A stretch of 64,000 bases of DNA, taken from contig DBXI01000076.1 in NCBI GenBank assembly GCA_002309255.1, forward strand, positions 30,946 through 94,945, given 5' to 3'. The translations under genes and the position numbers were made by a program. Position 1 is the first letter of the stretch. Every line of letters begins with the position of its first letter. Shown here piece after piece: positions 6,085 to 59,308 of the stretch. A model generated the notes under the pieces. The model was not told the DNA's origin. It ran no database searches and saw only the letters and a list, made by a program, of their open reading frames with translations. The DNA comes from Bacteroidales bacterium UBA1216. Its GTDB lineage: Bacteria > Bacteroidota > Bacteroidia > Bacteroidales > Paludibacteraceae.

Positions 6085-7452
6085 ATGGAACAAATACAAT
6101 CTTTACTACGTGACAAGACTTGGGCACGTTGGACAGTGCTCGTGCTTGTGGCATCGATGATGTTCTTCGCATACATGTTCGTGGACATCTTGTCGCCACT
6201 GGCGTCATTGCTGAACGATACACTGGGTTGGGATCAGGGCGTGTTTGGCACGTATGCAGCTGGTGAGTACCTGCTGAACGTGTTCGGATTCCTGATCATC
6301 GCCGGTATTATCCTGGACAAGATGGGTGTGCGCTTCACCGGCCTGCTCAGTGCCTCGCTGATGGTAATCGGTGCGGCAATCAAGTACTGGGGTATATCGT
6401 GGGCGGATGCTAACACCGTAAGTTGGCTTAACTCGTGGTGGACAACGATGCCAGGTTCGGCTAAGCTGGCTATGTTCGGCTTCATGATCTTCGGCTGCGG
6501 CGCGGAGATGGCTGGCACAACGGTAAGCAAGATCCTCGCCAAGTGGTTCAAAGGCAAGGAGATGGCACTGGCTATGGGGCTGGAGATGGCTATCGCACGT
6601 CTGGGCGTGTTTGCCGCCATGTGGCTCTCGCCGATGTTCAGTTTGCACTTTGCAGTCAACGGCACGAACTCTGTGGTAGCACCGCTGCTGTTCTCCGCTC
6701 TGCTGCTCGTGATAGGCCTCTTGAATTTCTTCGTGTTCACGATTATGGACAATAAGTTCGACAAGCAACTCGTAGCTATCGGAGAAGCACCTGCCGTACA
6801 TGATCCGGAGGATGAGTTCCATGTGAGCGATCTGGGGAAGATCTTCTCGAGCAAGATGTTCTGGATCGTGGCTCTGCTGTGCGTGTTGTACTACTCGGCT
6901 ATCTTCCCCTTCCAGCGCTTTGCTACGAACTTCCTAGAGGAAACACTGAGCATCTCGAACGCTGAGGCTGCGGGGCTATTCAAGTGGTTCCCGATATTGG
7001 CGATGGTGCTGACGCCGTTCTTGGGCGCGTTCATCGACTACAAGGGCAAGGGCGCATCGATGATGATGTTAGGCGCTGTGATCATGATAGCCTGCCACTG
7101 CATCTTCGCCTTCGTGTTGCCCGCATATCCGAGCAAGGTGCTGGCGCTGATCACAATCCTCGTGCTGGGCGTGAGCTTCTCGCTGGTGCCGGCATCGATG
7201 TGGCCGAGTGTGCCTAAGATCATCGACGAGAAGGTGCTGGGTTCGGCTTACTGCCTGATCTTCTGGGTGCAGAACGTAGGCTTGTGCCTTGTGCCTCTGC
7301 TTATAGGCAAGCTGCGCGTGGCTACCGATGGCTATCTGGTGCCGATGATCGTGTTCGCATCATTCGGCGTACTGGCCTTCTTCCTGAGTCTGGCACTTAA
7401 GGTTGAGGATAAGAAGAAAGGTTACGGCCTCGAATTGCCCAACAAGAAATAA
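6085..7452 (+). CDS. MFS transporter
   Basis: About 12 predicted TM segments with an MFS-like loop (DKMGVRFTG). The ATG at 6085 is preferred over the track's GTG at 6067. Confidence 0.8.
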   Translation: MEQIQSLLRDKTWARWTVLVLVASMMFFAYMFVDILSPLASLLNDTLGWDQGVFGTYAAGEYLLNVFGFLIIAGIILDKMGVRFTGLLSASLMVIGAAIKYWGISWADANTVSWLNSWWTTMPGSAKLAMFGFMIFGCGAEMAGTTVSKILAKWFKGKEMALAMGLEMAIARLGVFAAMWLSPMFSLHFAVNGTNSVVAPLLFSALLLVIGLLNFFVFTIMDNKFDKQLVAIGEAPAVHDPEDEFHVSDLGKIFSSKMFWIVALLCVLYYSAIFPFQRFATNFLEETLSISNAEAAGLFKWFPILAMVLTPFLGAFIDYKGKGASMMMLGAVIMIACHCIFAFVLPAYPSKVLALITILVLGVSFSLVPASMWPSVPKIIDEKVLGSAYCLIFWVQNVGLCLVPLLIGKLRVATDGYLVPMIVFASFGVLAFFLSLALKVEDKKKGYGLELPNKK

Positions 7453-7453
7453 T

Positions 7454-8662
7454 ATGGATTGGTCATTTCTGATAGAGGATAAATCATCGCTTAACGTTAC
7501 GACCGACAGCCGTAAGATCACTCAGGGCTGCGTGTTCGTGGCGCTCAGGGGCGAGAACTTTGACGGCAACCGTTTTGCCTTGCAATCGCTGGAGCAGGGT
7601 GCTTCGTTCGCCATCGTGGATGACGAAGAGGTATACAACACCATCCTTGCCTCCGGAGAGTACTCCGCCCTGCTGGTCGAGAACAGTCTGCAGGCCTTGC
7701 AGGATCTGGCGCGCGAGTGGCGCCGTTACCTCGGCACGCGCATCATCGCCATCACAGGCACCAACGGCAAGACAACCACCAAGGAGCTCCTCGCCGCCGT
7801 GCTCAGCACGAAGTACAAGACGCACTACACACAGGGCAACCTGAACAACAGTATAGGCGTACCACTCACGCTACTGCAGTTGACGAGCGAACACGAGTTG
7901 GCGATTGTCGAGATGGGTGCTTCGCACCCCGGGGACATCAAGGAACTGGTGGAGGTAGCAGAACCGAACTGCGGACTGATCACCAATGTGGGCAGGGCGC
8001 ACTTGCAGGGCTTTGGCTCGTTCGAGGGCGTGATGCAGACCAAGGCCGAATTGTATGATTACTTGCGTGTGCACAGTGGCTTCTGCTTCCGCAATACGGA
8101 CAACCCTTATCTGGCACAGATGGCCGACAACCTGAAGACGGTTGCTTACACCACCGGCAAGATGCCCGAAGGCACGCAACTCGTCGGTGCATACAATAGC
8201 GAGAATATCCAAGCCGCGCTGTGCGTAGGCGAGTACTTTGGCGTCGATCGTGAGACAGGCTTGGCTGCTATACGCGTGTACGTACCTTCTAATAACCGCT
8301 CGCAACGCACTGTCACCGAACATAACACGCTCATCGTGGATGCCTACAACGCCAACCCGACCTCCATGACCGCTGCCATTCAGGCTTTCACAGGCGACAC
8401 GTATATTCTCGGGGCGATGAGAGAGTTAGGCGATTATTCGCACACCGAGCATCAGAACATCGTGAATATGTTGCTGGAGCGCAAGGCGGATCGAGTACTG
8501 CTCGTTGGCGATGAGTACCGCGAGACGACGGCACCTTATCCTATCTTCACGAATGTGGATGAGCTCTGCGAGCACCTCAAGCAACAGCCTATAGTTGGCT
8601 GCACAATCCTGATCAAAGGCTCGCGCAGCAATAAACTGGAAAATGTAATACCCTTGTTATGA
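7454..8662 (+). CDS. murF: UDP-N-acetylmuramoyl-tripeptide--D-alanyl-D-alanine ligase
   Basis: TTDSRKI...VFVALRGENFDGNRFA, GTNGKTTTKE P-loop and Mur ligase central and C-terminal domains. ATG at 7454 (MDWSFLIED...). Confidence 0.9.
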   Translation: MDWSFLIEDKSSLNVTTDSRKITQGCVFVALRGENFDGNRFALQSLEQGASFAIVDDEEVYNTILASGEYSALLVENSLQALQDLAREWRRYLGTRIIAITGTNGKTTTKELLAAVLSTKYKTHYTQGNLNNSIGVPLTLLQLTSEHELAIVEMGASHPGDIKELVEVAEPNCGLITNVGRAHLQGFGSFEGVMQTKAELYDYLRVHSGFCFRNTDNPYLAQMADNLKTVAYTTGKMPEGTQLVGAYNSENIQAALCVGEYFGVDRETGLAAIRVYVPSNNRSQRTVTEHNTLIVDAYNANPTSMTAAIQAFTGDTYILGAMRELGDYSHTEHQNIVNMLLERKADRVLLVGDEYRETTAPYPIFTNVDELCEHLKQQPIVGCTILIKGSRSNKLENVIPLL

Positions 8663-50171: not shown

Positions 50172-51641
50172 ATGCAACTATCAGAACTTTTCACACAAGC
50201 CACGGGCAAGCCGGCAGGCGAGCAGACTTCTCTGACCGCATCAGGGAGCAACCGGCGTTATTTTCGTATATGGAGCGAGGATAAGCAGGTGACGCTCATC
50301 GGCGTAGAAGGTACGTCGCATGACGAGAATCATGCTTTCCTTATGATGGCTGCGCACTTTGCCGGCCAGGAACTGAATGTTCCACGCGTGCTCGCTGTCA
50401 GTGAAGACGAGATGCTATATGTGCAGGAAGACCTGGGTAATACGCTGCTATTTGACTACATAGCCGAGGGGCGAAAAACCGGTGTGTTCTGCGAACGTGA
50501 GAAAGTGATGCTCAGAAAAACCATACGTGCGTTAGCACGCTTTCAACTGAAGGCGGCAGAGAATTTTGACTTCAACGTATGCTACCCGCAGCCGGAGTTC
50601 AACTTGAGGAGTATCCGCTGGGATCTGAACTACTTCAAGTACTGCTTCCTTAAAGCAACGGGGCTTGAGTTCCAGGAGGATAAACTGGAAAATGAGTTTG
50701 AGCGCCTGGCATATATCCTGCTTCAGCAGAAGCAGATGAATGCATTCATGTACCGTGACTTTCAGAGCCGTAACGTGATGGTTGTTGAAAGTCAAAAGTC
50801 GAAAGTCGAAAGCGATAGAGAGTTGGAGCCGTACTTCATCGACTTCCAGGGCGGAAGGCGTGGCCCCATATACTACGATGTCGCCTCGTTCCTGTGGCAA
50901 GCTAAGGCGAACTTCCACGATGAGCTGCGCCACGAACTCATCGAGGAATATCTAGATGAACTATGTAAGTACATAGAGGTTGACAAGAAGGAGTTCTACG
51001 CCACGCTCCGGCACTTCGTGCTCTTCCGGACGATGCAGGTGCTCGGTGCTTATGGCTTCCGCGGCTACTTTGAGAAGAAACCCCACTTCTTGCAATCTAT
51101 ACCCTTTGCTATCGAGAATCTCCGCCGTCTGCTCAAAGACGCAGCGGATGACTACCCTTACCTGATCGAGGTGCTGCACGAGATGACCGAGATGAAACAG
51201 TTCAAGGAGGTGAATGTTAGGAAACCGCTGGTGGTGAAGGCCTATTCGTTCTCGTTCAAGAAAGGAATCCCTGCGGATGATAGCGGCAATGGTGGCGGCT
51301 TTGTGTTCGATTGCCGTGCGGTGAACAACCCCGGTAAGTACGAGCGCTATAACCACTACACCGGTATGGATGAGCCGGTAATCAAGTTCCTGGAGGAGGA
51401 TGGCGAGATCTTCCCCTTCCTGGATGCAGCCTACCGATTGGTGGATGCCAGCGTCAAGCGCTACAAGGATCGTGGGTTCACCAGTCTCATGGTCAGCTTC
51501 GGCTGCACGGGCGGACAGCACCGCTCTGTTTATGCCGCCGAGAAGATGGCAGAACACATCAACGAGAAATTCGGCGTCGAGGTGCGCCTCATTCACCGCG
51601 AACAGAACGTGGAACGCACACTCCCGGAGAAAGAAAAATGA
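50172..51641 (+). CDS. fusion protein: AmgK-like anomeric sugar kinase (APH fold) + RapZ C-terminal-like domain
   Basis: N-terminal half has YRDFQSRNVMV (catalytic loop) and IDFQGGRRGPIYYDVASFL (DFQ..GP..YD motif of AmgK-type kinases). C-terminal half has FVFDCRAVNNPG and SFGCTGGQHRSVYAAEKMAEHI (RapZ/YhbJ C-domain signature GCTGGQHRSV). Confidence 0.75.
   Translation: MQLSELFTQATGKPAGEQTSLTASGSNRRYFRIWSEDKQVTLIGVEGTSHDENHAFLMMAAHFAGQELNVPRVLAVSEDEMLYVQEDLGNTLLFDYIAEGRKTGVFCEREKVMLRKTIRALARFQLKAAENFDFNVCYPQPEFNLRSIRWDLNYFKYCFLKATGLEFQEDKLENEFERLAYILLQQKQMNAFMYRDFQSRNVMVVESQKSKVESDRELEPYFIDFQGGRRGPIYYDVASFLWQAKANFHDELRHELIEEYLDELCKYIEVDKKEFYATLRHFVLFRTMQVLGAYGFRGYFEKKPHFLQSIPFAIENLRRLLKDAADDYPYLIEVLHEMTEMKQFKEVNVRKPLVVKAYSFSFKKGIPADDSGNGGGFVFDCRAVNNPGKYERYNHYTGMDEPVIKFLEEDGEIFPFLDAAYRLVDASVKRYKDRGFTSLMVSFGCTGGQHRSVYAAEKMAEHINEKFGVEVRLIHREQNVERTLPEKEK
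50787..50814 (+). repeat. in-frame heptad array GAAAGTC|AAAAGTC|GAAAGTC|GAAAGCG inside the kinase CDS
   Basis: Encodes ESQKSKVES, located between the catalytic loop and the DFQ motif. Confidence 0.9.
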
Positions 51642-51643
51642 CA

Positions 51644-51671
51644 AAATTGCAAATGATTAAATTGTAAATGA
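51644..51671 (+). repeat. heptad array AAATTGC|AAATGAT|TAAATTG|TAAATGA
   Basis: Fills the spacer after the kinase stop. The last unit contains the ATG at 51668. Confidence 0.85.
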
Positions 51672-52414: not shown

Positions 52415-53334
52415 GAGTAATTATCAATCCCAAATCGGGTAAAAAAGCTTACCGTCGGCAACGAATGTACCTGTGGAACCTATTGCGCGAGCGCCATATA
52501 CCTTATGAGTTCCGCGTAACCAAATATGCTGCTCATGCTACGGAGTTGGCGCGCGAACTGGTAGAGGATTTTGGCTGCGACGAGATCCTTGTTATAGGCG
52601 GCGATGGCACATTGTCAGAAACACTGAACGGAATCATGCGCGCCAAGATCTCTGCAGAGCAACGTAGGAAGATCCAACTCGGTCTGATGCCTCGTGGCAC
52701 AGGCAACGATTGGGGCAGGTACTGGAACCTGACGAAGAACTACCGTGATGCTATTGAGCGTTTCCTGTCGGGCGAAGGCCATCCGCTGGATGTGGGATGC
52801 GTCACGTACTGGCGCAATCATATTGAGCACCATCGCTACTTCATCAACTCCGTAGGATTCGGTGTCGATCCGCTGTGTTGCCAGAAAGCTGAGAAACTCA
52901 AGTACTACCTCGGCTCACATCACGTGAACTACCTGTTCGGATTGATCGGAGCTATCATGGAGCAGAAACCGATACCCATGCAACTGGTGGTGGATGGAGA
53001 GGTGCTGGTGCACGAAGCCTTGTTCACCATGAATGTAGGCAATGGCCCATATTCAGGAGGTGGTATCAAGCAGAATCCTGATGCCGACCCACAGGACGGC
53101 GTATTCCATGGGATGTTCGTGTGCAAGCCTACACTCATACAAATCATCCGTGCATTGCCTAACCTATTCAATGGCAAACTGACCGAACTTCCGTTCATCC
53201 ATGCCTATGTGGGCAAGGATATCCGTATGGAGACCGAAGAACATTTGCTCTTTGAGGCTGATGGCATATTGCAGAATGTGATGGGACCATGTGAGGTGCA
53301 TTGTATCCATCATGCTTTACAATTTAAAGTATAG
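52408..53334 (+). CDS. diacylglycerol/lipid kinase family protein (YegS/BmrU-like)
   Basis: IINPKSGKK..., ILVIGGDGTLSE DAGK catalytic motif, 308 aa. 7-nt overlap with the upstream gene. Confidence 0.82.
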   Translation: MLGVIINPKSGKKAYRRQRMYLWNLLRERHIPYEFRVTKYAAHATELARELVEDFGCDEILVIGGDGTLSETLNGIMRAKISAEQRRKIQLGLMPRGTGNDWGRYWNLTKNYRDAIERFLSGEGHPLDVGCVTYWRNHIEHHRYFINSVGFGVDPLCCQKAEKLKYYLGSHHVNYLFGLIGAIMEQKPIPMQLVVDGEVLVHEALFTMNVGNGPYSGGGIKQNPDADPQDGVFHGMFVCKPTLIQIIRALPNLFNGKLTELPFIHAYVGKDIRMETEEHLLFEADGILQNVMGPCEVHCIHHALQFKV

Positions 53335-53375
53335 AAAGGTGAAAGTTGAAAGGTGAAAATTGAAAGGTGGAAGAG
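53334..53375 (+). repeat. 6 x 7-bp array GAAAGGT|GAAAGTT|GAAAGGT|GAAAATT|GAAAGGT|GGAAGAG
   Basis: Starts on the last base of the lipid kinase stop codon and contains the candidate rsmH GTG start (53367). Confidence 0.95.
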
Positions 53376-54269
53376 GTTGTGTATCATATTCCTGCGATGC
53401 TGAATGAGGTGCTTGATGGCCTGCATATCGATGCCGACCGCGAGCAGGTGTTCGTTGATGCCACGTTTGGCGGCGGCGGACATAGCCGGGGCATCATAGA
53501 GCGCATGAGCAGTCGTTCGCGGCTCTTCGGTATAGATCAGGATCTGGATGCTTACGCCAACTGCATCAGCGATGAGCGGTTCACGTTCGTGAGAAGTAAC
53601 TTCCGCTACATTGCTAACTTCATGGATTACTATGGCGTAGAGCAGGTGGATGGTATATTGGCTGACTTGGGTGTAAGTTTTCATCACTTCGATGCTGGCG
53701 AACGAGGCTTCTCTTTCCGCTTCGATGCGCCGCTTGATATGCGCATGAACAGGCGACAGAAACTATCGGCAGCCGATGTTATTAATAACTACAGCGAGGA
53801 AGATTTGGCGCGCGTAATGTATCTATACGGTGAGTTCCGCGACTCACACGCCATGGCGCGGCAGATCGTCAGCCGCCGCACTCTGCAGGCGATTCTCACC
53901 ACGCAGCAGTTGCTCGATAGTGTCCGTCTAAAGGACAAACAAGATGCAGCACGACTCTTCCAAGCCCTGCGCATAGAGGTTAACGATGAGCTCGGCGCCC
54001 TGCGCGAACTCCTGCAGGCCGCAACACAACTGCTCGCGCCTGGCGGACGACTGGTGATCCTGACATACCACTCATTGGAGGATCGCATCGTCAAGAACTT
54101 TATGCGCTCGGGTAACACCGAAGGATCAATAGAGAAAGACTTCTACGGGAATATACTGACCCCCTTCAAGGTGATAGAGAAAGGACGCAGCGCCTCTGCC
54201 GATGAGGTGGAGCGAAATCCTCGCGCACGATCTGCCAAGCTCCGCGTAGCAGAACGCTTAAATGACTAA
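53367..54269 (+). CDS. rsmH: 16S rRNA (cytosine1402-N4)-methyltransferase
   Basis: YHIPAMLNEVL, DATFGGGGHS, DLGVSFHHFD and SLEDRIVKNF are RsmH/MraW motifs. Start is uncertain: GTG at 53367 or in-frame GTG at 53379. The last codons (AAT GAC TAA) lie in the TAAATGACTAAAT motif. Confidence 0.9.
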   Translation: MEEVVYHIPAMLNEVLDGLHIDADREQVFVDATFGGGGHSRGIIERMSSRSRLFGIDQDLDAYANCISDERFTFVRSNFRYIANFMDYYGVEQVDGILADLGVSFHHFDAGERGFSFRFDAPLDMRMNRRQKLSAADVINNYSEEDLARVMYLYGEFRDSHAMARQIVSRRTLQAILTTQQLLDSVRLKDKQDAARLFQALRIEVNDELGALRELLQAATQLLAPGGRLVILTYHSLEDRIVKNFMRSGNTEGSIEKDFYGNILTPFKVIEKGRSASADEVERNPRARSAKLRVAERLND

Positions 54270-54311
54270 ATGGTCAAATACATGATAAAATAGTAAATGT
54301 CTAAATGAGGA

Positions 54312-54632
54312 ATGGATAAACGATTAAGTTTGCTACAAAAGATCCTGAACGGTGACATCTTCCGCGCCGAACGGGTTTCGCGCCACTATCGACTGCTGGC
54401 GCTGATTGGTATATACATCTTCCTGAGCATACTGATGGGCTTCGTGTCCGAATGGCAGTACGTGCGTATCGGCGCGCTGAAGAAAGAGTTGCAAGATACT
54501 CGCAACGAGGAACTGACCATCAGCTCGGAGCTGGTGAACAGTACGCGGCAGTCGGCCGTGCTGCGTGCACTCAAAGACAATGGCAGCAAGCTCCGCGAAG
54601 CAAATACACCTGTGATTGTCGTAAATGACTAA
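54312..54632 (+). CDS. FtsL-like cell division protein
   Basis: 106 aa with a single TM (LLALIGIYIFLSILMGF) followed by a short coiled coil. Canonical position between rsmH and ftsI. Confidence 0.75.
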   Translation: MDKRLSLLQKILNGDIFRAERVSRHYRLLALIGIYIFLSILMGFVSEWQYVRIGALKKELQDTRNEELTISSELVNSTRQSAVLRALKDNGSKLREANTPVIVVND

Positions 54633-54646
54633 ATAGTAAATATATT

Positions 54647-56485
54647 GTGCCTGATAACCGACAAAATACTGTCTTCCGTTTCGCGCTGGTGTTCCTGCTT
54701 ATCGCAGCAGGCTTTGTGATTGTGCTGGCTTACATCATCCGCATCCAGTGGTTTGAACGTGACAAGTGGCTGGGTACGGACTCCAGCCGCAAGCCCAATG
54801 TAACCGTAATTGCGCCCCAGCGCGGTAACATCCTTGACCACGAAGGTCGTCTGCTCGCCGGCAGCATACCCGGGTACTATGTGTATATGGATACACGTGT
54901 GCCCGCACTCCATCAAGGCGGAGACACACTCTTCTACCGATATGTCGATAGTGTGGCTATCGGCCTGAACCGCATCTTGCCCGATGCAGACGGTGCGGCC
55001 GGGTACAAGAGGAAGATGATCAAGTCGTTCAACCATAAGAATGGCAAGAATCTGCGGGGGGTGAAACTGGAAAATGGTACGGTTCTCAAGCTCTGCCCCA
55101 ACCGTGTGTCGTATATCCAGAAAAGGGAAATAGAGAAGATCCCGCTGTTCAATAGGGGGTACTACAAGTCCGGCCTGCACTTTAAGGATGCTCCGCAGCG
55201 TAAGAAACCGTTCGGTTCGCTCGCATCGCGTACCATAGGTAATATCCTCAGCAACGGAAAAGGTAACACCGGGTTGGAGAAGACCTTTGAGGATGACTTG
55301 CATGGCATAGACGGTTTAGCGGTGCGCGAACGCATGGGCGGCAAGTGGGAGAACGTGCCGGTGCGCGAGGCTATCAACGGCTACGATCTGGTCACTACGC
55401 TCGATGCCAACCTGCTGGATATAACCGAGACCGCCCTGCGCGGATGCCTAGAGCGCACACAAGCTGACTGGGGCTGCTGCATACTCATGGAGGCAAACAG
55501 CGGAAAGATCCGTGCTATCTGTAACCTCGACCGCAGTTCGGATGGCACATACAACGAGAGAGCCAACCACGCCGTTACGCGCGTTGAGCCGGGATCAACG
55601 TTCAAGACGATCTCGATGATGGCGGCACTCGATGACGGCAAGGTGAATCTGACAGACAGTTTTGAGGTATATAAGAAAGGCTGGACGTACCTCAGTTCCT
55701 CGCACACCGACGCCCATAAGTTCGACACGGTATTCACGTTGCGCAGTGCACTGGCTGTGTCGTCCAATATTGCCTTCGCTAAGATGGTTACTCAAAGTTA
55801 CGACAAGAAAGCATCGAAGTTCGTGGATAAACTCCAGTCGATGGGCATCTGCGATAGTGTCTATTCGGAGATCCCGGGCGCTCAAAAGCCGCGTGTTGAC
55901 GTGCCAAAGGATGCCGTAACACTTTCAAAGATGGCGTACGGCTACTACGTCGAGCTCACCCCAATGCAGATTCTCACGTTTTACAATGGGATTGCCAACA
56001 ACGGCCGAATGATTCGCCCCTATTTGGTAGAAAAGGTCATGGATGGCGACGAGGTCATCCGCCGCTTTGACACCGAGACAATCAAGAGCAGTATGTGCAG
56101 CAAAAGCACACTGGAGGATGTAAAGGTGGCTTTGCACGATGTAGTGTGGGACAACAAGCTCGGTACCGCGTCCCGACAGCCTTGGGGCGCGCCCAAAGCG
56201 CAGTCGAAGCTCGTTCCCATAGCCGGAAAGACAGGTACAGCGCAGATCCTACGTAACGGCAAGTACCAGACACGCGAACACCGGATGACTTTCGTCGGAT
56301 ATTTCCCCGAGGACAAACCGCTGTATTCCTGCATCTGTATGGTTGAGTTCCCGAAGAACTATGGCTATTACGATGCTGGTATGGATTGCGGATTGGTAGT
56401 CCGCCAGATTGCCGAGAAGACCATCGTCTACTCCGGACACTATGTGATAAAAGGTGACTCATTAGTTTACGAAAAGAATAAATAA
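54647..56485 (+). CDS. ftsI: penicillin-binding protein 3-like division transpeptidase
   Basis: N-terminal TM, PBP dimerisation domain, STFK (PGSTFKT), SSN (VSSNIAF) and KTGT (AGKTGTAQ). GTG start, with no nearby ATG. Confidence 0.88.
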   Translation: MPDNRQNTVFRFALVFLLIAAGFVIVLAYIIRIQWFERDKWLGTDSSRKPNVTVIAPQRGNILDHEGRLLAGSIPGYYVYMDTRVPALHQGGDTLFYRYVDSVAIGLNRILPDADGAAGYKRKMIKSFNHKNGKNLRGVKLENGTVLKLCPNRVSYIQKREIEKIPLFNRGYYKSGLHFKDAPQRKKPFGSLASRTIGNILSNGKGNTGLEKTFEDDLHGIDGLAVRERMGGKWENVPVREAINGYDLVTTLDANLLDITETALRGCLERTQADWGCCILMEANSGKIRAICNLDRSSDGTYNERANHAVTRVEPGSTFKTISMMAALDDGKVNLTDSFEVYKKGWTYLSSSHTDAHKFDTVFTLRSALAVSSNIAFAKMVTQSYDKKASKFVDKLQSMGICDSVYSEIPGAQKPRVDVPKDAVTLSKMAYGYYVELTPMQILTFYNGIANNGRMIRPYLVEKVMDGDEVIRRFDTETIKSSMCSKSTLEDVKVALHDVVWDNKLGTASRQPWGAPKAQSKLVPIAGKTGTAQILRNGKYQTREHRMTFVGYFPEDKPLYSCICMVEFPKNYGYYDAGMDCGLVVRQIAEKTIVYSGHYVIKGDSLVYEKNK

Positions 56486-56522
56486 TCCATCAGCTATTAT
56501 TGGCTGATCAAACAACACACAT

Positions 56523-57974
56523 ATGCTACTATCTAACCTCCTTCAAGCCATTGAGCCGCTACGCGTCATAGGTCGTACGGATGTTGATGTTCACGCTATC
56601 CAGTTTGACTCCCGCAAGGTCGAGCCCGGTGACCTCTTTGTTGCCCAAGTCGGCACAGCGGTTGATGGCCACACCTTCATTGAGTCCTGCATAAACAGAG
56701 GCGTCTCCGTGGTAATCCTAGACAATATAGCGTACTTAAACGAGACTAAACTGGGCGTAACTTATGTCTTGGTCAAGAGTTCCGATGAGGCACTCGGTCG
56801 CTTGGCGCATCAGTGGTACGGCTGCCCGAGTGAGAAACTCACGCTCGTAGGTGTCACCGGCACCAACGGTAAGACAACCATCGCCACTCTTCTCTATAAT
56901 CTGGTGCGTGCCATGGGCTATAAGGCCGGATTGCTCTCCACGGTTATCTACTACGTTGATGGACAGGCTTTTCCATCCACCCACACCACGCCTGACGCAC
57001 TCGCCCTGAATGCTCTGCTCGCACAGATGGTAGAGGTGGGCTGCGAATATGCCTTCATGGAGGTAAGCAGTCACTCTATCGCACAGGAGCGCATAGCCGG
57101 ACTACAGTTCAATGGCGCATTGTTCACCAACCTCACGCGCGACCATATAGACTACCATAAGACCTTCGACAACTACCGCGACACGAAGAAACGCCTATTC
57201 GACAACCTGCCCAAGAGCGCTTTTGCTATCACCAATGCCGATGACAAGAACGGCCTTATTATGACGCAGAACACCCGCGCTAAGGTCTATACGTACTCCA
57301 CGCAGAGCATGGCTGACCACCACGGCAAGATACTCGAGGAAGGCTTCGATGGTATGTTGCTCAGTATTGACAACCAGGAGGTGTTCGTCCCCCTTGTTGG
57401 CCGATTTAATGTATCCAACCTGCTCTGTATTTACAGCGCTGCACTCTGCCTCGGTTTCGACAAACTTGACGTCCTGCGCGTACTCAGTGCCCTCAAGCCT
57501 GTCAACGGTCGCTTTGAGACCATCCGCTCCCCCAAAGGCTGGACAGCCATCGTTGATTACGCCCACACACCTGATGCCGTGGACAACGTCATCCGCACCA
57601 TACGCGAGATAAAGAAAGCGGGCACTAAACTCATAACTGTAGTAGGTTGCGGCGGTAACCGCGACAAAGGCAAGCGCCCAATGATGGCACAGATCGCCAA
57701 GCGCGGTAGCGAGCAGTTGATTTTGACGAGCGATAACCCCCGCGACGAAGAACCTCGAGACATATTGAATGACATGAAAGCCGGTCTCACCGAAGAGGAG
57801 CTGCACAGCACATTGGTGATAGAAGATCGTGCTGCGGCTATTCAGACTGCCTGCACCCTGGCGCAGGCAGGCGATGTGATCCTTGTTGCCGGCAAGGGAC
57901 ATGAGGACTATCAGATCATCAAGGGCGTGAAACACCACTTCGACGACCACGAACAAGTACGCAAATACATCTGA
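56523..57974 (+). CDS. murE: UDP-N-acetylmuramoyl-L-alanyl-D-glutamate--2,6-diaminopimelate ligase
   Basis: GVTGTNGKTT P-loop, Mur ligase domains, DNPR motif (TSDNPRDE). Confidence 0.93.
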   Translation: MLLSNLLQAIEPLRVIGRTDVDVHAIQFDSRKVEPGDLFVAQVGTAVDGHTFIESCINRGVSVVILDNIAYLNETKLGVTYVLVKSSDEALGRLAHQWYGCPSEKLTLVGVTGTNGKTTIATLLYNLVRAMGYKAGLLSTVIYYVDGQAFPSTHTTPDALALNALLAQMVEVGCEYAFMEVSSHSIAQERIAGLQFNGALFTNLTRDHIDYHKTFDNYRDTKKRLFDNLPKSAFAITNADDKNGLIMTQNTRAKVYTYSTQSMADHHGKILEEGFDGMLLSIDNQEVFVPLVGRFNVSNLLCIYSAALCLGFDKLDVLRVLSALKPVNGRFETIRSPKGWTAIVDYAHTPDAVDNVIRTIREIKKAGTKLITVVGCGGNRDKGKRPMMAQIAKRGSEQLILTSDNPRDEEPRDILNDMKAGLTEEELHSTLVIEDRAAAIQTACTLAQAGDVILVAGKGHEDYQIIKGVKHHFDDHEQVRKYI

Positions 57975-58036
57975 TTACATAGCCAAATGATTAAATAAAT
58001 GGCCAAATGGTAAATGACTAAATTGTAAATTACTTT

Positions 58037-59308
58037 ATGTTATATTCACTTTTTACACATTTTAGCGACGTGCTTGGTGCACGTTTGTTCACGTACATCT
58101 CTTTCCGCGCGATTATGGTGGCGGTGATTGCCTTCGTTGTGAGCGTGTGGTTCGGGAAATTCTTCATCGCACTGCTTAAACGCCAGAACATCTCAGAACA
58201 GCAGCGCGACGAGAAGATCGATCCGTTCAATGTGGCTAAGAAAGGAGTACCCACCATGGGCGGCGTGGTGCTGATCGTGGCGACCGTAGTGCCTGTGCTG
58301 ATCATGGGCAACCTGAGTAACATCTACCTCTGGTTGATGCTTATCACCACCCTAATTCTTGGCGCATTGGGATTTGCAGATGACTACATCAAGACCTTCA
58401 AGCATAACAAGGAGGGACTGAACGGCTGGGTGAAGATCATCGGACAGGTGACATTGGGACTGATTGTCGGCCTCACGCTGCGTTACGCACCGATGACAAC
58501 GATGAACGAGACTGTTACCGTGCACTACGAAAATAACGTCCGCGTGGTGGAGAAGTCTCCGGAAGTAAAATCCACAAGGACTACTATTCCTTTTGTTAAG
58601 AACCATAACGCCAACTATGCGGATATGTTCTCTTTCCTCGGTGACGAGATGAAGTATCGTGCCGGTTGGATCTTCTTTGTGCTGCTAACAGTGTTCGTGG
58701 TAGCGGCGGTGAGCAACGGCGCAAACCTGAACGACGGGATGGACGGCATGTGTGCGGGTAATAGTGCACTCATTGGTGTTGCACTCATTGTGCTGGCCTA
58801 TGTGTCGGGTAACACGATGCTGGCCGATTACTTCGATGTAATGTATATACCGGGCAGCGAAGAACTGGTGGTGTTCCTCGGAGCATTCGTAGGCGCGCTG
58901 GTAGGCTTCCTGTGGTTCAACGGCTTCCCTGCACAGATCTTCATGGGCGACACGGGCAGCCTGACCATCGGTGGCATCATTGGCGTGTGCGCCGTGATCA
59001 TCCACAAAGAACTGCTCGTTCCTATCCTATGCGGTGTATTCCTGATGGAGAGTGTATCAGTCATTCTGCAGACGCAGGTATATAAGTTCAGCAAGCGTCG
59101 CGGCCAACGTGTGCGCGTGTTCAAGCGCGCGCCGCTGCACGACCATTTCCGCACCTCGGTGGAGCAGGTGCTCAAGAATGATCCTACCTGTCGCATCCTG
59201 TGCAAAGGCAAGAGTGAACTGCACCATGAGACGAAGATCGTCCTCCGCTTCTGCATCGTAACACTCCTGTTGGCTGCATTTACAATACTAACCCTAAAAA
59301 TCCGTTAA
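58037..59308 (+). CDS. mraY: phospho-N-acetylmuramoyl-pentapeptide-transferase
   Basis: PTMGG, NLNDGMDGM (NxxDGxDG) and GDTGSL motifs. Polytopic membrane protein. Confidence 0.95.
   Translation: MLYSLFTHFSDVLGARLFTYISFRAIMVAVIAFVVSVWFGKFFIALLKRQNISEQQRDEKIDPFNVAKKGVPTMGGVVLIVATVVPVLIMGNLSNIYLWLMLITTLILGALGFADDYIKTFKHNKEGLNGWVKIIGQVTLGLIVGLTLRYAPMTTMNETVTVHYENNVRVVEKSPEVKSTRTTIPFVKNHNANYADMFSFLGDEMKYRAGWIFFVLLTVFVVAAVSNGANLNDGMDGMCAGNSALIGVALIVLAYVSGNTMLADYFDVMYIPGSEELVVFLGAFVGALVGFLWFNGFPAQIFMGDTGSLTIGGIIGVCAVIIHKELLVPILCGVFLMESVSVILQTQVYKFSKRRGQRVRVFKRAPLHDHFRTSVEQVLKNDPTCRILCKGKSELHHETKIVLRFCIVTLLLAAFTILTLKIR

Follow-up and report, generated by a model that had tools for sequence, protein, structure and literature searches.

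Tandem heptanucleotide repeats are found in several bacterial groups, the STRR repeats of heterocystous cyanobacteria among them. Here we describe a family of AAAT-cored tandem arrays, built of units of 7 and 8 nucleotides (nt), in a 64,000-nt stretch of DNA (hereafter the window) from Bacteroidales bacterium UBA1216 (contig DBXI01000076.1, positions 30,946 to 94,945), where an exact 13-mer, TAAATGACTAAAT, recurs at three junctions of the division and cell-wall (dcw) operon. The closest known system, its function as hypothetical as that of the present arrays, consists of the TAACTGA heptamer direct repeats of marine Beggiatoaceae, some Cyanobacteria and five Bacteroidetes including Paludibacter propionicigenes (MacGregor 2015, PMC4679880). 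These form 2-6 forward tandem copies that end a few nt 5' of a start codon, in some cases overlapping the end of the upstream open reading frame (ORF); they place stops in all frames and have no predicted RNA structure, S1, Csp and CsrA have been proposed as their readers, the genes downstream show no functional pattern, and their abundance is patchy and lineage-specific (PMC4679880). As summarized in the same paper, long simple sequence repeats (SSRs) with 5-11-nt units are dominated by heptamers and are mostly non-coding, with no concentration near starts in that summary (Mrazek, Guo and Shah 2007, in PMC4679880), and G-rich heptamer SSRs are on record from Xanthomonas and Nostoc (Rehm 2015, PMC4692102). 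Translation initiation in Bacteroidetes, for its part, requires little structure, with adenines at -3, -6 and -11 to -14; the -12/-13 region is close to ribosomal protein bS1, and the vicinity of the start shows AUG avoidance (Baez et al. 2019, PMC6847099).

Within the AAAT-cored family the three dcw copies are nothing out of the ordinary; they happen to occupy neighbouring junctions. With moderate confidence, we favour the explanation that the arrays arose by slippage and are kept as leaders, A-rich and structure-free, that serve Shine-Dalgarno-blind ribosomes as loading pads.

Anatomy, orientation and placement of the arrays

The window, whose gene identities were checked by Pfam, belongs to a rumen Paludibacteraceae metagenome-assembled genome (MAG), a 74%-complete draft of 2.23 Mb and 52% GC that we label G000; its relatives are MAGs of the same family from rumen and gut. 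Within the window, TAAATGACTAAAT has three exact copies, all on the plus strand (54259-54271, 54622-54634 and 58011-58023), against an expectation of 0, none of 100 dinucleotide-preserving shuffles of the window containing a match. When up to two mismatches are allowed there are nine sites as compared to 1.16 expected, among them 54294-54306, 57984-58008 and 51635-51662; the last lies in the spacer between a kinase gene and an NTP-transferase gene, which a preliminary description of this DNA, made from the sequence alone, had rightly picked out as a related variant. The same description placed the three 13-mers correctly, and its further observations hold: the motif supplies the closing codons AAT GAC TAA of both rsmH and ftsL, and each copy is embedded in a looser run of TAAATRN units of 7 or 8 nt. 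The third copy lies in the spacer between the murE stop (57972-57974) and the mraY ATG (58037). The shared Asn-Asp ending of RsmH and FtsL is not significant in itself, because the array closes all three frames; two upstream ORFs running into such an array would end alike about one time in three.

The 13-mer corresponds to two adjacent units (TAAATGAC followed by TAAAT..) of the family. Its arrays carry 2-7 AAAT-cored units on the sense strand, alternating between 7 and 8 nt (TAAATGG and TAAATGAC) to give a 15-nt super-unit across all three frames of which TAA, TGA and TAG are found. Two endings are usual: TAAATNNYTTT-ATG, and a TAAATG unit whose own ATG is the start. Measured from the last NAAAT to the ATG, the spacing has maxima at 6 nt (the first of these endings), at -2 nt (the second) and at 3 nt, and the start codon therefore stands in register with the array.

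Orientation is strongly biased. Co-directional spacers hold 27 sense and 7 antisense AAAT[GA] arrays, and for strict TAAAT[GA]N arrays the sense-to-antisense ratio is 6:0 with at least three units and 17:4 with at least two. Convergent spacers account for 12% of spacer length and for 3 of the 112 intergenic AAAT arrays. In G000, six of seven arrays run forward and end within a few nt of a start codon, and 37 of 42 congener arrays lie no more than 50 nt before the ATG of a same-strand long ORF. Of the 21 arrays that end no more than 15 nt from a start, nine have their first letters at or across the stop codon of the gene before; others come after a TAnnTTTG -7 promoter box, which puts them in a primary 5' leader. 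The earlier suggestion of a shared junction element is supported, and the element is strand-specific. The coordinates are collected in Table 1.

Table 1. AAAT-cored arrays in and near the dcw operon of the window, with the genes that adjoin them (window coordinates; ORF identities from Pfam)
Feature	Position	Strand	Details
rsmH-ftsL array	54259..54311	+	TAAATGAC TAAATGG TCAAATAC ..AAAATAG TAAATGTC TAAATGAG GA, then ftsL ATG at 54312
rsmH-ftsL array, first unit			gives rsmH codons AAT GAC TAA; stop 54267-54269
ftsL-ftsI array	54622..54646	+	TAAATGAC TAAATAG TAAATAT ATT, then ftsI GTG at 54647
ftsL-ftsI array, ftsL end			gives ftsL codons AAT GAC TAA; stop 54630-54632
murE-mraY array	57983..58036	+	CCAAATGAT TAAATAAATGG CCAAATGG TAAATGAC TAAATTG TAAATTAC TTT, then mraY ATG at 58037
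murE-mraY array, three abutting mini-ORFs			ATG ATT AAA TAA; ATG GCC AAA TGG TAA; ATG ACT AAA TTG TAA
Related array, spacer from APH/RapZ-C kinase to NTP-transferase (MurU-like)	51635..51670	+	AAAATGAC AAAATTG CAAATGAT TAAATTG TAAATG
Related array, last unit			holds ATG at 51668
rsmH (MraW methylase)	53367..54269	+	3' end enters first array
ftsL (FtsL_2)	54312..54632	+	array on each side
ftsI (PBP_dimer + Transpeptidase)	54647..56485	+	GTG start 14 nt past ftsL stop
murE (Mur ligase)	56523..57974	+	
mraY (Glycos_transf_4)	58037..59308	+	third array 5' of gene

The GTG at 54647 is apparently the start of ftsI (MPD...), and ATG-initiated MPD or MSD starts of relatives match it. A different set of heptads, GAAAGGT/GAAAGTT, lies 5' of rsmH (53334-53375) and is not present in the sister species G015; GAAA-cored arrays are likewise sense-biased genome-wide (28:4), and GAAAGG would pair with CCUUUC, which we take to be part of the Bacteroidia 16S 3' tail. 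A known structured RNA family was considered for the arrays and rejected, Rfam covariance models having returned nothing at E <=1 between 51000 and 60000.

Distribution in the genome and turnover among relatives

The whole G000 genome holds seven exact copies of the 13-mer, that is, four outside the dcw operon. These four occur in the same kind of run and each ends 5-6 nt 5' of an ATG, and the genes behind them are unrelated: a WYL regulator, a nucleotidyltransferase, RibBA (ribBA) and riboflavin synthase (ribE). The copies are thus not confined to the dcw operon. Other AAAT-family arrays adjoin the starts of TruA, a FabH-like protein, L32 and a Zn-peptidase. Counting AAAT-cored arrays of at least three units spaced 6-9 nt, we find 148 in the genome as compared to 16 in local shuffles.

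A dozen other 7/8-nt repeat families coexist with the TAAATGR(C) family. At a Tandem Repeats Finder (TRF) score of at least 40, there are 156 arrays of period 7, 73 of period 8, 83 of period 14, 54 of period 15 and 43 of period 16, against 0-9 per class in shuffles (none for periods 7 and 8), so that these periods yield 409 arrays of many families versus about 20 in shuffles. Literal (A/T)ACTGA heptamer arrays are present as well (C73:366-410, C60:47, C31:11929(-) and C4:14752), the one at C73:366 ending directly at an ATG. Neighbouring arrays share a same-strand 10-mer in 5.3% of pairs versus 2.3% of random pairs, a modest but real tendency of which the dcw trio is an example. RibBA (G000 C55:12786, residues ~198-225) contains a tandem peptide repeat, SFSESGLSAQR SFSESGLSGGSGL, in the linker between its DHBP-synthase and GTP-cyclohydrolase II domains; this linker repeat (SFSESGLS) reflects the same tendency to form repeats, here in frame. 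Among 80 related dcw loci, the highest density of period-7/14 arrays, about one per kb, is seen in Candidatus Aphodosoma (L041, L042); those of Prevotella, Segatella and Bacteroidaceae have 0-0.15 per kb.

The exact 13-mer is found in 13 of 24 congeneric genomes, copy numbers running from 0 to 19, and the broader pattern TAAATNGTAAATG has between 0 and about 39 matches per genome. Outside the genus the 13-mer is essentially absent, and in 16 other Bacteroidales families it stays at control level. The arrays are not hypervariable at conspecific scale: five independent conspecific assemblies (99.4-100% identity) have no indels over 6.6 kb that include four arrays, the rsmH-ftsL array keeps the same length, with two substitutions in the 42-nt spacer versus 0.6% overall, and the ftsL-ftsI array is invariant. 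Conspecific contigs at mraY and ribE added nothing further on array length change.

Between species, we compared the dcw and ribE junctions. The nearest species to G000 are G015 (MurE 87%) and G001; G000 and G015 have 41% identity at 4-fold degenerate sites, which is saturation. AAATGR arrays are nonetheless kept at ftsL-ftsI in all three species, in G015 with the exact 13-mer. At rsmH-ftsL, an AAATGA 8-mer array is found in G001 and GAAAAYT heptads in G015; the murE-mraY spacer of G015 holds a degenerate remnant only. Before ribE, G015 has three CAAATCA units followed by the same TAAATAATTTT-ATG end as in G000 (TAAATRATTTT-ATG). Among close species the AAAT core and the periodic architecture therefore persist, whereas the details, and even the family, turn over. 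In most congeners the rsmH, ftsL and ftsI junctions overlap, or murE-mraY holds another heptad family. Species-specific unit variants were considered as a sign of genome-wide homogenisation and set aside, since a few long arrays make up most of the counts and the test is therefore not independent.

Possible roles of the arrays

Start codons in G000 have an A peak at -14 to -11 and a TAAAT peak at -15; the latter is sharp and single-copy (39 genes, or 78 within +/-1 nt) and is the genome's non-Shine-Dalgarno upstream motif. AUG is avoided before starts, the ATG/GAT ratio being 0.43 at -21 to -1 versus 0.99 mid-gene, although this ratio, like the assignment of arrays to genic and other classes, rests on crude gene calls (longest ATG ORFs). 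In the explanation that we favour, replication slippage would create and reshape the arrays, an array often beginning in or just past the upstream stop and ending in register with the next start. Arrays would then be retained for the A-rich, unstructured stretch that they give directly 5' of the start codon, and Shine-Dalgarno-blind Bacteroidia ribosomes may load on that stretch, perhaps via bS1. The arrays would accordingly be transcribed within the mRNA and any effect would be on initiation; they probably act on the mRNA near the next start codon. In favour of this explanation we count the unrelated genes behind the copies, the excess of arrays over shuffles, the sense bias and the scarcity in convergent spacers, the placement of congener arrays before starts, the positions after -7 boxes and upstream stops, the persistence at saturated divergence, the slightly lower structure relative to shuffles, the A-rich start context of the genome, the candidate readers that it encodes or lacks, and the like anatomy of the TAACTGA repeats.

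As to a reader, CSD (PF00313) and RRM_1 (PF00076) were each found in 0 of 25 genus genomes (G000-G024), and CsrA and Hfq gave no tblastn hits with the queries used; Csp, RRM, CsrA and Hfq were thus set aside as array readers, not having been found in these genus and genome searches. S1 domains are present in the genome, and bS1 is the only candidate left among the S1, Csp and CsrA readers proposed for the TAACTGA repeats. A multi-S1-domain gene, presumably rpsA/bS1, is split across contig ends (G000 C59:3-569(-) and C5:42-245(+)). In the other Bacteroidales families, CSD occurs in 13 of 16 and RRM_1 in 11 of 16; other small host-associated Paludibacteraceae, Aphodosoma and several Prevotella/Segatella genomes likewise lack CSD. 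Loss of these chaperones was rejected as the driver of the arrays, the correlation being insufficient: CSD-less Prevotella/Segatella have nearly array-free dcw loci.

Several observations count against the loading-pad explanation. The arrays add 2-5 AUGs in good context, counter to the AUG avoidance of Bacteroidia, and this AUG content of TAAATG arrays is the part that the leader explanation does not account for. Their AAA runs fall at about -10 to -8 and -17 to -15, off the genome's -14 to -11 optimum. Start regions with an array have slightly less structure than shuffles of the same sequences (minimum free energy -3.6 kcal/mol, z = +0.41, p = 0.02), but GC-matched start regions without arrays are equally unstructured (-3.8 versus -3.6 kcal/mol), and lower RNA structure was for that reason rejected as a hallmark of the arrays. 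About one-third of the looser AAAT arrays are antisense or not beside a start. One congener array of TAAATGG/TAAATGAC units (L109, G016:C9, 705-803, minus strand), which includes the exact 13-mer, lies 12 nt from the 5' end of tRNA-Thr(CGT), between a TTTTG promoter-like box and the tRNA gene; the family is therefore not restricted to protein-coding starts. The arrays are also dispensable, in that the more distant congeners mostly have overlapping rsmH/ftsL/ftsI junctions (TAATG at rsmH-ftsL). The ribE array is not present in G001, G003, G005 or G010. Finally, at least 10 congeners (among L001-L013, locus position ~7450-7560) fill the murE-mraY spacer with the T-rich sense heptads ATTTGAG, ATTTGAC and ATTTGAA; AATTAAA and other heptads are further fillers of this spacer in distant congeners.

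The main rival, less likely but serious, is that the arrays are near-neutral filler, by-products of 7-8-nt replication slippage with no positive function, that survive only where they are harmless (in A/T-rich leaders and in frame-closing orientation), which would itself yield the strand and position bias. The abundance of unrelated 7/8-nt families over shuffles speaks for this, as do the repeat inside the RibBA linker, the differences in family, length and presence between species at orthologous junctions, the two substitutions in the 42-nt rsmH-ftsL spacer against 0.6% overall and the array before a tRNA; polymerase-related slippage has been proposed for heptamers (Mrazek 2007, as cited in PMC4679880). 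Independent local slippage does not, however, predict that one 13-mer and one terminal module should recur across species and at dozens of loci that are not linked. The strength of the orientation bias, the depletion in convergent spacers, the crisp AAAT arrays at the same junctions across saturated synonymous divergence and the lack of any indel in four arrays of the five conspecific assemblies all argue in the same direction. Mismatch repair is moreover not missing: MutL is encoded in 24 of 25 genus genomes, and loss of mismatch repair was rejected as the cause of slippage.

Rather unlikely, in our estimate, is a bolder form of the leader idea that would give the AUGs a role. Here, in a genus with Shine-Dalgarno-blind ribosomes and without Csp and RRM chaperones, the AUG-bearing TAAATGR arrays would be a selected, copy-number-tunable initiation device: successive OB-folds of bS1 would grip the periodic AAAT cores, TAAATG units would as stop-start pairs hand on terminating ribosomes via abutting mini-ORFs or act as decoy starts, and unit number and phase would determine how much of the next cistron is made.

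We consider it improbable that the arrays serve simply as a relay or decoy, with TAAATG as a stop-start pair, ribosomes re-initiating on abutting mini-ORFs of 3-7 codons toward the next cistron, or the upstream AUGs acting as decoys that tune expression. Between rsmH and ftsL, the rsmH TAA, ATG..TAG TAA, ATG..TGA GGA and the ftsL ATG do all lie in one frame, three mini-ORFs abut 5' of mraY, the 7+8 = 15-nt super-unit preserves the reading frame, and the genome otherwise keeps AUGs away from its starts. Yet arrays of period 14 or 16 occur as often as those of period 15, for which reason a coding constraint behind the 15-nt super-unit was rejected; sister arrays at the same site (ribE) are built of AUG-less CAAATCA units; and the chain at ftsL-ftsI and mraY either is in another frame than the real start or ends 8 nt before it. 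Re-initiation, suggested in the preliminary description, does not stand as a general role: some arrays directly follow a promoter -7 box in a primary 5' leader and one precedes a tRNA, places that no ribosome from an upstream gene reaches.

It is very unlikely that the arrays are contingency repeats of phase variation, or operators to which a DNA-binding protein would bind at the DNA level, although short tandem repeats near starts are a classic substrate of phase variation and direct-repeat operators exist. Phase variation was rejected, as unit number does not change among the five conspecific assemblies at 99.4-100% identity; the genes downstream are, besides, housekeeping rather than surface or antigenic genes. 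An operator is opposed by the strand-specific placement after -7 boxes and inside operons, which argues for reading at the RNA level, and by the 7-8-nt period, which does not fit the DNA helical repeat.

Scarcely credible, finally, is the dcw-specific processing or re-initiation junction signal of the preliminary description: three of seven copies do fall within 3.8 kb of one operon and three species retain the family at ftsL-ftsI, but the distribution over genome and genus contradicts it, in that the other four copies and about 40 in congeners, one of these before a tRNA, precede unrelated genes, most congeners have no spacer at rsmH-ftsL-ftsI, and G015 has another heptad at rsmH-ftsL and no clear murE-mraY array.

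If the loading-pad explanation is correct, the AAAT leaders would be a natural and dissectable initiation element bearing on how Bacteroidia choose start codons without Shine-Dalgarno pairing, one that stands letter for letter before unrelated genes, recurs at the same junctions across saturated divergence and goes against the AUG-avoidance rule of the phylum; it might also be taken over, as it stands, into expression constructs for Bacteroidales of gut and rumen. Should the arrays be neutral slippage products, the rumen Paludibacteraceae would still stand out for an unusual mutational regime, of which gene prediction should take account, since the arrays close frames, provide stop codons and offer false starts.

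Comparison with described repeats and initiation signals

Like the TAACTGA repeats, the AAAT arrays are tandem (2-7 units spaced 7 or 8 nt) and forward, end near a start, in some cases lie over the end of the upstream ORF and place stops in the forward frames; they too are predicted to be unstructured, precede unrelated genes and vary in abundance by lineage, and literal (A/T)ACTGA arrays also occur in G000, as a separate family. They differ in their unit, TAAATGR(C), which alternates between 7 and 8 nt and brings an AUG as well as stops, in coexisting with a dozen other 7/8-nt families, and in that Csp, RRM and CsrA were not found here. With the STRR and Xanthomonas/Nostoc heptamers, the genome's repeats share an abundance of intergenic tandem heptamers, several families per genome and a hypothetical function; the sequence and composition of the unit are different, and consistent start-codon placement is not reported for those repeats in the accounts used here. 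As in the long SSRs of Mrazek and colleagues, to the extent that these are summarized by MacGregor, the genome's arrays exceed chance, are mostly non-coding and heptamer-rich and have a plausible origin in slippage, whereas AAAT arrays are strongly biased to start codons and to one strand, with one unit family across loci and species. The initiation motif of Baez et al. (2019, PMC6847099) is matched by the genome's A peak at -14 to -11 and by arrays that are A-rich, unstructured and directly 5' of starts; unlike that motif, the arrays are multi-copy, set their A runs to either side of the peak and carry extra AUGs.

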